From a virus (Duplodnaviria > Heunggongvirae > Uroviricota > Caudoviricetes), in IMG/VR virus record IMGVR_UViG_2606217104_000010: a DNA stretch of 5,484 nucleotides; one strand, 5' to 3'. The notes beneath the pieces were generated by a model. That model was not told where the DNA came from. It did no database searches and saw only the letters and a program-made list of their open reading frames with translations. Shown one piece after another: positions 1 to 698 of this stretch. Every line of letters begins with the position of its first letter. Position 1 is the stretch's first letter. Made by a program: the position numbers and the translations under genes.

Positions 1-304
1 ACTCCGCCTTCGCAAAATAAGCGGAAGCCTGGCGAAGGATATCGTTACTGCGGCGCAGTTCACGATTTTCACACTCCAGCTCTTTCAGACGCTGACGTTC
101 AGCGGTGGTGAGCCCTCCATCACCGCCCCCGGTATCCCGCTCATGCTGGCGAACCCAGACACGCAGAGTCTCCGGCGTACAGCCAATCTTTGGAGCAATG
201 GAACAAATTGTCGCCCATTGTGAGTCATATTCGCCCTGACTTTCCAGAACCATACGGACTGCCCGTTGACGGACTTCAGGGGAAAAACGAGTATTTTTAG
301 TCAT
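1..304 (-). CDS. IS3-family transposase OrfA (helix-turn-helix DNA-binding subunit), N-terminal 101 codons; the C-terminus lies beyond the window start.
   Basis: Minus-strand translation from the ATG at 304-302 gives [101 protein letters not shown], which I recognise as IS629/IS3411-type OrfA. An AGAGG ribosome-binding site lies 7 nt upstream. It is absent from the ORF track only because it runs off the window edge. Confidence 0.88.
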
Positions 305-358
305 CCTGTTTACCTCTTTCTCAGGAAGTTTAGTCTCCAGGATTCCCGGGGCGGTTCA
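1..358 (-). mobile_element. Left end of an IS3-family insertion sequence (IS629/IS3411-like), partial; the element continues beyond the window start. Its terminal inverted repeat abuts ninB sequence at about 345-358.
   Basis: Reverse complement of 345-358 reads TGAACCGCCCCGGG, followed by an AGAGG ribosome-binding site and the orfA start. IS3-family ends characteristically begin with TG. ninB-like coding sequence begins immediately at about 359. The IS629 name is from memory of the OrfA protein sequence; the exact boundary is uncertain by a few bp. Confidence 0.75.
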
Positions 359-698
359 AACCATTCAGGAACGCAACCGCAGCTTAGACCAAAACAGGAA
401 GCTATGGGCCTGCTTAGGTGACGTCTCTCGTCAGGTTGAATGGCATGGTCGCTGGCTGGATGCAGAAAGCTGGAAGTGTGTGTTTACCGCAGCATTAAAG
501 CAGCAGGATGTTGTTCCTAACCTTGCCGGGAATGGCTTTGTGGTAATAGGCCAGTCAACCAGCAGGATGCGTGTAAGCGAATTTGCGGAGCTATTAGAGC
601 TTATACAGGCATTCGGTACAGAGCGTGGCGTTAAGTGGTCAGACGAAGCGCGACTGGCTCTCGAATGGAAAGCGCGATGGGGAGACAGGGCGGCATGA
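359..698 (+). pseudogene. ninB: ninB (Orf-family recombination mediator), 3' fragment only; the 5' third including the start codon is displaced by the IS insertion.
   Basis: The frame 359-698 translates to ...[112 protein letters not shown], matching the C-terminal ~113 residues of phage lambda NinB (146 aa, from memory). There is no in-frame ATG/GTG/TTG between the upstream stop at 267-269 and the GTG at 480. The IS inverted repeat lies directly upstream. Confidence 0.85.

Follow-up and report, generated by a model that had tools for sequence, protein, structure and literature searches.

Insertion sequences of the IS3 family move by a copy-out/paste-in route through a circular intermediate, and their OrfAB transposase results from -1 frameshifting. 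In phage lambda, the polymerase modified by N passes terminators and overcomes the polarity that IS insertions cause, and ninB (orf) is dispensable for growth, as the nin5 deletion removes it harmlessly. Among Stx2a phages, IS629 drives most of the variation within phage types (PMC4587872), and in one of these phages, which had lost a methyltransferase gene to IS629, spontaneous induction was changed (PMC10810198). A survey of O157:H7 genomes displayed duplications of 3-4 bp at 21/47 IS629 sites, and 62% of the copies were located on prophages (PMC3271280).

The window (i.e., the whole 5,484-nt stretch of DNA analyzed here) is an entire draft contig of E. coli that ends 358 nt into IS629, the assembler having been unable to cross this IS because it is multicopy. 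The gene content and Pfam matches corresponded to the nin-Q-late-leader region of a lambdoid prophage. The NinG variant of the window, looked up as an exact protein, was on record in two places only: JNME01000107.1 (5,484 bp, assembly GCA_000700085.1), which is identical to the window, with nothing upstream of base 1 in the record, and JNMP01000113.1 (GCA_000700405.1), a sibling contig beginning at window base 82 and showing two base differences. This NinG variant (WP_032258071.1, 206 aa, window 1037-1657) was found on the two sibling contigs alone among ~15 billion proteins, and it is thus a private marker of the lineage. Positions 359-5484 shared 99.3% identity with prophages in several complete E. 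coli genomes, and positions 359-1100 shared 100% identity with prophages of O55:H7/O157:H7-lineage and other strains. The literature search found no paper on the two assemblies, or on IS629 together with ninB. The first 698 positions of the window encompassed the following features.

1..358, minus strand: IS629 (IS3 family), nt 358 to 1, the left end of the element (357/358 vs the 1310-bp copy in NZ_CP023834)
334..358, minus strand: left terminal inverted repeat (IRL), 5'-TGAACCGCCCCGGGAATCCTGGAGA, with its outer end at 358, as read from the sequence
2..304, minus strand: 5' part of IS629 orfA, 101 codons, HTH_Tnp_1, running off the contig end (translation; PF01527)
359..698, plus strand: 3' remnant of ninB (orf), nt 102-441, codons 35-146 and stop, at offset 101 in the intact ninB of relatives
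480..698, plus strand: 72-aa ORF from GTG480, the only start-bearing in-frame ORF of the remnant (gene-finder call)

An earlier reading, made from the sequence only, had assigned the first part of the window to an IS3-family, IS629-like element, and this assignment held. Window 1-358 showed a single mismatch (357/358) with 1310-bp copies in complete E. coli genomes, an element found in thousands of E. coli replicons, and was 99.7% identical to copies in phage records (LC567824) labelled 'IS3 family IS629' by their depositors. A copy named IS1203 by PGAP differed from the window at 16/358 positions (~95.5% identity). The alignment to IS629 references, which the sequence-only reading had proposed as a check, matched over window 1-358 with its boundary at 358, exactly where the terminal repeat TGAACCGCCCCGGG ends. 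The reference copy in NZ_CP023834 (L001:1501-2810) is bounded by imperfect terminal repeats of 25 nt and flanked by a CTG target duplication; its transposase gene is in two parts, with a programmed frameshift and an AL1L pseudoknot in the annotation. The IRL of the window pairs with the right-end repeat of this reference copy, TGAACCGCCCCGGGTTTCCTGGAGA, the window's own right repeat being outside the contig. The portion of IS629 in the window is made of the left repeat and the first 101 codons of orfA, while the frameshift site, orfB, the DDE domain and the right repeat are located beyond the contig end; the reference copy harbors the frameshift site, orfB and the DDE domain. The transposase gene reads away from ninB. 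The sole difference from the 99.7%-identical copies was a C to T change at window 73 (IS629 nt 286), replacing Arg78 of OrfA by Cys (CGT to TGT). As this position belongs to the last 81 nt of the contig, outside the span of the sibling, the change may be a private mutation or an assembly/consensus error among IS copies.

On the other side of the boundary, window 359 corresponded to nt 102 of the 441-nt lambda-type ninB. The complete 146-codon frame with its own start was absent, codons 1-33 and two bases of codon 34 being replaced by the IS. Native ninB reads ...ATCGTAGT|AACCATT and the window reads ...GGTTCA|AACCATT, which makes the boundary unambiguous. The ninB matches obtained among 5,426 complete E. 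coli genomes and the phage collection all began at query base 359. At the DNA level, the remnant was 100% identical to ninB of O157:H7 493/89 and others, and NinB residues 35-146 were identical to lambda NinB (PDB 1PC6) except for G107S.

In the frame of the remnant, a stop was found at 267-269 inside the IS; the frame is open from 270 and contains no ATG, GTG or TTG before GTG480. No sigma-70-like site was found on the plus strand of window 1-700. The 72-aa protein starting at GTG480 was on record in 201 collection blocks, with PF05772 assigned to it. Its product would be missing half of the protein, and it is considered as a candidate ORF, a gene-finder call not being proof of expression. 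Because the remnant harbors neither a start codon nor a promoter, ninB is, as predicted from its sequence, a pseudogene remnant, and the Orf/NinB recombination mediator is knocked out. The sequence-only reading had placed the terminal repeat against ninB about 33 codons from its start, and had described a fragment devoid of start and promoter, with Orf/NinB inactivated as a result; the joint at nt 102, the frame without a start before GTG480 and the plus strand free of sigma-70-like sites agree with it on each of these points. The phenotypic cost of this loss would be small, judging from textbook lambda biology.

A promoter reading outward from the IS end into the nin genes was also considered and rejected, as the plus strand of window 1-700 carries no promoter-like site and the known transcription of the transposase runs the opposite way.

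Broken ninB genes were also observed elsewhere. In seven Logan contigs examined, a sample biased by its retrieval (L003-L010; ninB at ~9779-10219, and at ~9011-9451 in L010), ninB was interrupted by point mutations, without IS629. The lesions encompassed nonsense or frameshift mutations at codons 1, 15 and 23, a W-to-stop change in WHGRW (two contigs), and frameshifts. As the lesions differed across the contigs, ninB pseudogenes arise repeatedly.

The joint between the two parts is supported by their identity to known sequences (357/358 bases on the IS side and 742/742 on the ninB side), which excludes a chance match. A chimeric fusion of an IS629 read to a ninB read could be suspected in a draft short-read assembly whose contig ends in a repeat, and ninB near nt 105 is often a contig break point in other assemblies. 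However, the join coincides exactly with the last base of the inverted repeat of the IS, and the same joint was obtained in two separate assemblies, reaching 358 and 277 nt into the IS. A misassembly is rejected on both grounds, and the probability left to it is minute. BLAST of window 1-1100 against the 5,426 complete E. coli genomes and the phage collection found no record spanning the joint, and the exact DNA of this right junction had no match in GTDB species representatives, IMG/VR or JGI metagenomes. We thus hold with high confidence that the very last nucleotide of the left end of IS629 adjoins nt 102 of ninB in a lambda-like E. coli prophage, in which ninB is null and the downstream genes are intact. 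Strand transfer of the IS629 end into ninB would generate such an IRL-to-nt-102 joint, whether the far side of the element is that of a simple insertion or that of a deletion border.

Downstream of the remnant, the window encoded the following genes, all identified as ORFs with Pfam matches.

695-877, plus strand: ninE
874-1044, plus strand: ninF
1037-1657, plus strand: ninG
1654-2319, plus strand: Ser/Thr phosphatase
2316-2939, plus strand: antiterminator Q

The block from ninE to Q (695..2939) was intact, with the gene order of annotated relatives. It was followed by a gene for a 247-aa membrane protein (TfpB-like Pfam match), a DUF3927 ORF and the 5' part of a SASA/NanS-p-type esterase gene. 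The stop of ninB and the start of ninE overlap as ATGA at window 695-698, an arrangement that suggests translational coupling, which the truncation would abolish; ninE also displays its own GGAG ~10 nt 5' of its ATG. In the window, ninB is directly followed by ninE, as in O157:H7 493/89 and strain 13E0767, while the best full-window relatives (L014:6337-8176, L015:6337-6864) harbor a 528-bp dam methyltransferase gene between them. This dam gene is a repeated target of IS629 in other strains.

About 40 nt past the stop of Q, window 2982-3019 displayed a putative lambda PR'-like motif, TTGACTTTTTGAATAACTTTGGGGAAACTTGACACC; given this motif after Q, the region of the late promoter seems to be intact. 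The stretch that separates the DUF3927 ORF from the NanS-p-like esterase gene contains, at window 4366-4392, a hairpin resembling a strong intrinsic terminator (8 pairs, 7 of them G-C, then eight T's), a candidate for a terminator in the late leader that Q would override. Neither stx nor tRNA genes were found in window 2940-4480, the interval from Q to the esterase gene where Stx phages carry stx, and Rfam and tRNA scans of the whole window gave no matches.

The far side of the IS is where two explanations have to be weighed. Ten IS629-family junctions were surveyed in the ren-nin region of complete genomes, and they comprised six simple insertions and four deletion borders.

Simple insertion in dam, strain 2013C-3264: duplication AGG
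Simple insertion in a small ORF after ren, O103:H2 12009: duplication GAG
Simple insertion in ninE, MLI104K2: duplication ATC
Simple insertion in a DUF7301 gene, O157:H7 7409: duplication GAT
Simple insertion after ren, strain C7: duplication ACC
Simple insertion inside ninB, strain C7: duplication TTAC
Deletion border without duplication, integrase / IS629 / truncated dam-ninE: O103:H2 129 and eight similar records
Deletion border without duplication, IS2/int' / IS629 / dam: 90-3040 and three similar records
Deletion border without duplication, ninB nt 222 / IS629 / sitD': G5
Deletion border without duplication, dam' / IS629 / rzpD': FDAARGOS_1249

Since deletion borders make up about four in ten of the comparable junctions in finished genomes, an IS end located at the edge of a contig is ambiguous and cannot be taken as a simple insertion. 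The sequence-only reading had pictured about 1.3 kb of IS, with the other half of ninB and a 3-4 bp target-site duplication on its far side. Spelled out, such a simple insertion would consist of a complete 1310-bp IS629 within a continuous ninB, with the 5' 104-105 nt of the gene and an AAC/AACC duplication beyond the element, and with an early region (N, cI, cro, O, P, ren) that is still attached upstream. The left junction would then read ...CCAATCGTAGTAAC|TGAACCGCCCCGGGTTTCC with a 3-bp duplication, or ...GTAGTAACC|TGAACC with a 4-bp one. Such a structure is consistent with the six simple insertions with 3-4-bp duplications among the ten surveyed junctions, with the divergent ninB allele of strain C7, split ~2 codons away by an IS in the same orientation and present as both halves, and with the downstream genes of the window being all intact. 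However, matching duplications were reported at just 21 of the 47 published sites (PMC3271280), and the left junction DNA was unmatched in any collection searched.

The latter result was obtained at several levels. The left-junction pattern (ninB up to nt 101, 0-8 bases, IS repeat) gave no exact match in three contig collections, and a synthetic 604-nt left-junction query retrieved only other insertion sites from the complete genomes. Chimeric NinB'-IS ORFs were built from the reference right end, the 3-bp AAC case being MKKLT...PIVVTEPPRVSWRVFYL. The ORFs predicted for duplications of 0, 1, 2, 3 and 5 bp, as well as seven contig-edge truncations of the 3-bp case, were absent among ~15 billion proteins, where the gene calls of the window contig itself are present; this speaks against the simple insertion. 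The 35-aa form that corresponds to a 4-bp duplication was on record, and among the matches listed (24 of 43 blocks) it occurred on 10 contigs, all of them plain ninB contig-end partials that read ...GTAACCAT and not ...GTAAC|TGAACC. Searched by homology, the 47-aa chimera matched nothing but NinB fragments and NinB-HNH fusions.

The joint could equally be the border of a deletion or rearrangement, generated by intramolecular transposition or by IS629-IS629 recombination, in which case the 5' end of ninB, and probably the whole early region, would be gone or elsewhere, leaving a promoter-less remnant. Four independent precedents without target duplication were found in complete genomes, three of which involve the IS629 subtype of the window (<=4 mismatches in 358 nt). 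In O157 genomes, matching duplications are missing from more than half of the sites of IS629 (PMC3271280), and the left junction was recovered neither from the collections nor by the protein look-ups. However, no decay was observed in the downstream genes, and the negative look-ups are of limited power, as short ORFs may go uncalled and a 4-bp duplication remains compatible with them. Combining the counts in finished genomes, the published survey and the negative look-ups, we give the simple insertion slightly less than an even chance and the deletion or rearrangement border an even one. The two are thus about even, and the negatives of the look-ups do not favor the simple model.

These two explanations would have different consequences for Q. 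The sequence-only reading had further suggested that the IS might attenuate or alter Q expression and thereby prophage inducibility; a strong polar effect of this kind is unlikely. The insert of ~1.3 kb, with no IS gene along the direction of PR transcription, and the untranslated ninB remnant could together invite Rho-dependent termination, but in lambda, as textbooks describe it, Q is located behind the nin-region terminators and is reached only by polymerase that N has made resistant to terminators; the polarity caused by IS insertions is suppressed by N as well. The IS-free relatives of the window encode N, and the antisense strand of IS629 displayed only one weak terminator-like hairpin. 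The position of IS629 has been tied to the induction frequency of Stx2a phages, there because a methyltransferase gene was lost (PMC10810198). With the early region attached, transcription from PR, being N-modified, would pass the IS and Q would still be made, since this polymerase reads through terminators and meets just the weak antisense hairpin; a large effect on Q or inducibility is unlikely in that case. If the early region is lost, the nin-Q block would be without a promoter of its own, and the locus would be a non-inducible prophage remnant.

The closest single precedent for IS629 in ninB is strain C7 (NZ_CP010240.1, ~5,009,360-5,011,084). As in the window, a gene of the ninB family is the target, the transposase is antisense, and the sites are ~2 codons apart in aligned protein coordinates. 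The two loci differ in the ninB allele (only ~33% protein identity) and in the IS, which belongs to a different subtype in C7 (17 mismatches over its first 358 nt). C7 shows the two halves of the gene and the 4-bp TTAC duplication, while the window displays one side only. In C7, two IS629-family copies in the same orientation were found ~0.9 kb apart in the ren-ninB region (L036, 9361-13212), with the duplications ACC and TTAC. Such paired copies form an arrangement primed for deletions by IS-IS recombination, as seen in other strains.

Elements of different IS629-family subtypes, in the same orientation, were thus located ~3-6 nt apart in homologous coordinates in the window and in C7. With three ninB junctions, sites this close would be expected by chance in about 5-10% of cases, and the coincidence is treated as a lead only. 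That codons ~32-37 of ninB form a recurrent breakpoint, rather than a random target, is quite improbable; if true, IS629 may favor this stretch as a target, or a module boundary prone to recombination may be located there. The first ~35 codons of ninB act as an N-terminal module open to exchange, with signs of a module boundary at codons ~32-38: in one contig (L005:9791-10219), an unrelated N-terminus is joined at RNRSLDQN, and in two proteins (P0035 and P0037), NinB residues 1-32 are fused in frame to an HNH endonuclease. The boundary of this module is within a few codons of the IS629 site.

In the deletion borders of 129, 90-3040, G5 and FDAARGOS_1249, as in the window, an IS629 end adjoins a truncated gene of the nin region, and 129 and 90-3040 share with the window the orientation of the IS and the ninE-ninF-ninG-phosphatase block downstream. 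Unlike the window, these genomes have dam as the truncated gene, or ninB cut at nt 222, and int, IS2, sitD or rzpD can be seen on the far side. The nin5 deletion of lambda resembles the window by the loss of ninB/orf, a dispensable gene, but it also removes terminators and renders Q expression independent of N, whereas the IS insertion adds sequence instead.

Compared with the Stx2a phages, the targets differ, as IS629 was found there in the methyltransferase gene of phiPA2 and in the roi and lysozyme genes of PST1 phages (PMC4587872, PMC10810198). Those cases come from finished phage genomes in which both junctions are seen, with a phenotype measured in one, while the prophage of the window is without stx between Q and the esterase gene. 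The ninB nt-102 site is new among the finished genomes searched, none of which displayed it, and is therefore a new instance of a well-known kind of event. The junction, present in only two sibling draft assemblies and in 0/5,426 complete genomes, is usable as a lineage marker. Its significance is otherwise small, as it adds one more disrupted accessory gene to those of IS629, the element chiefly responsible for small-scale mutation of prophages in pathogenic E. coli. In the window as in the Stx2a phages, IS629 disrupts lambdoid accessory genes in pathogenic E. coli, where it is a main source of variation between otherwise near-identical prophages (PMC4587872, PMC10810198).
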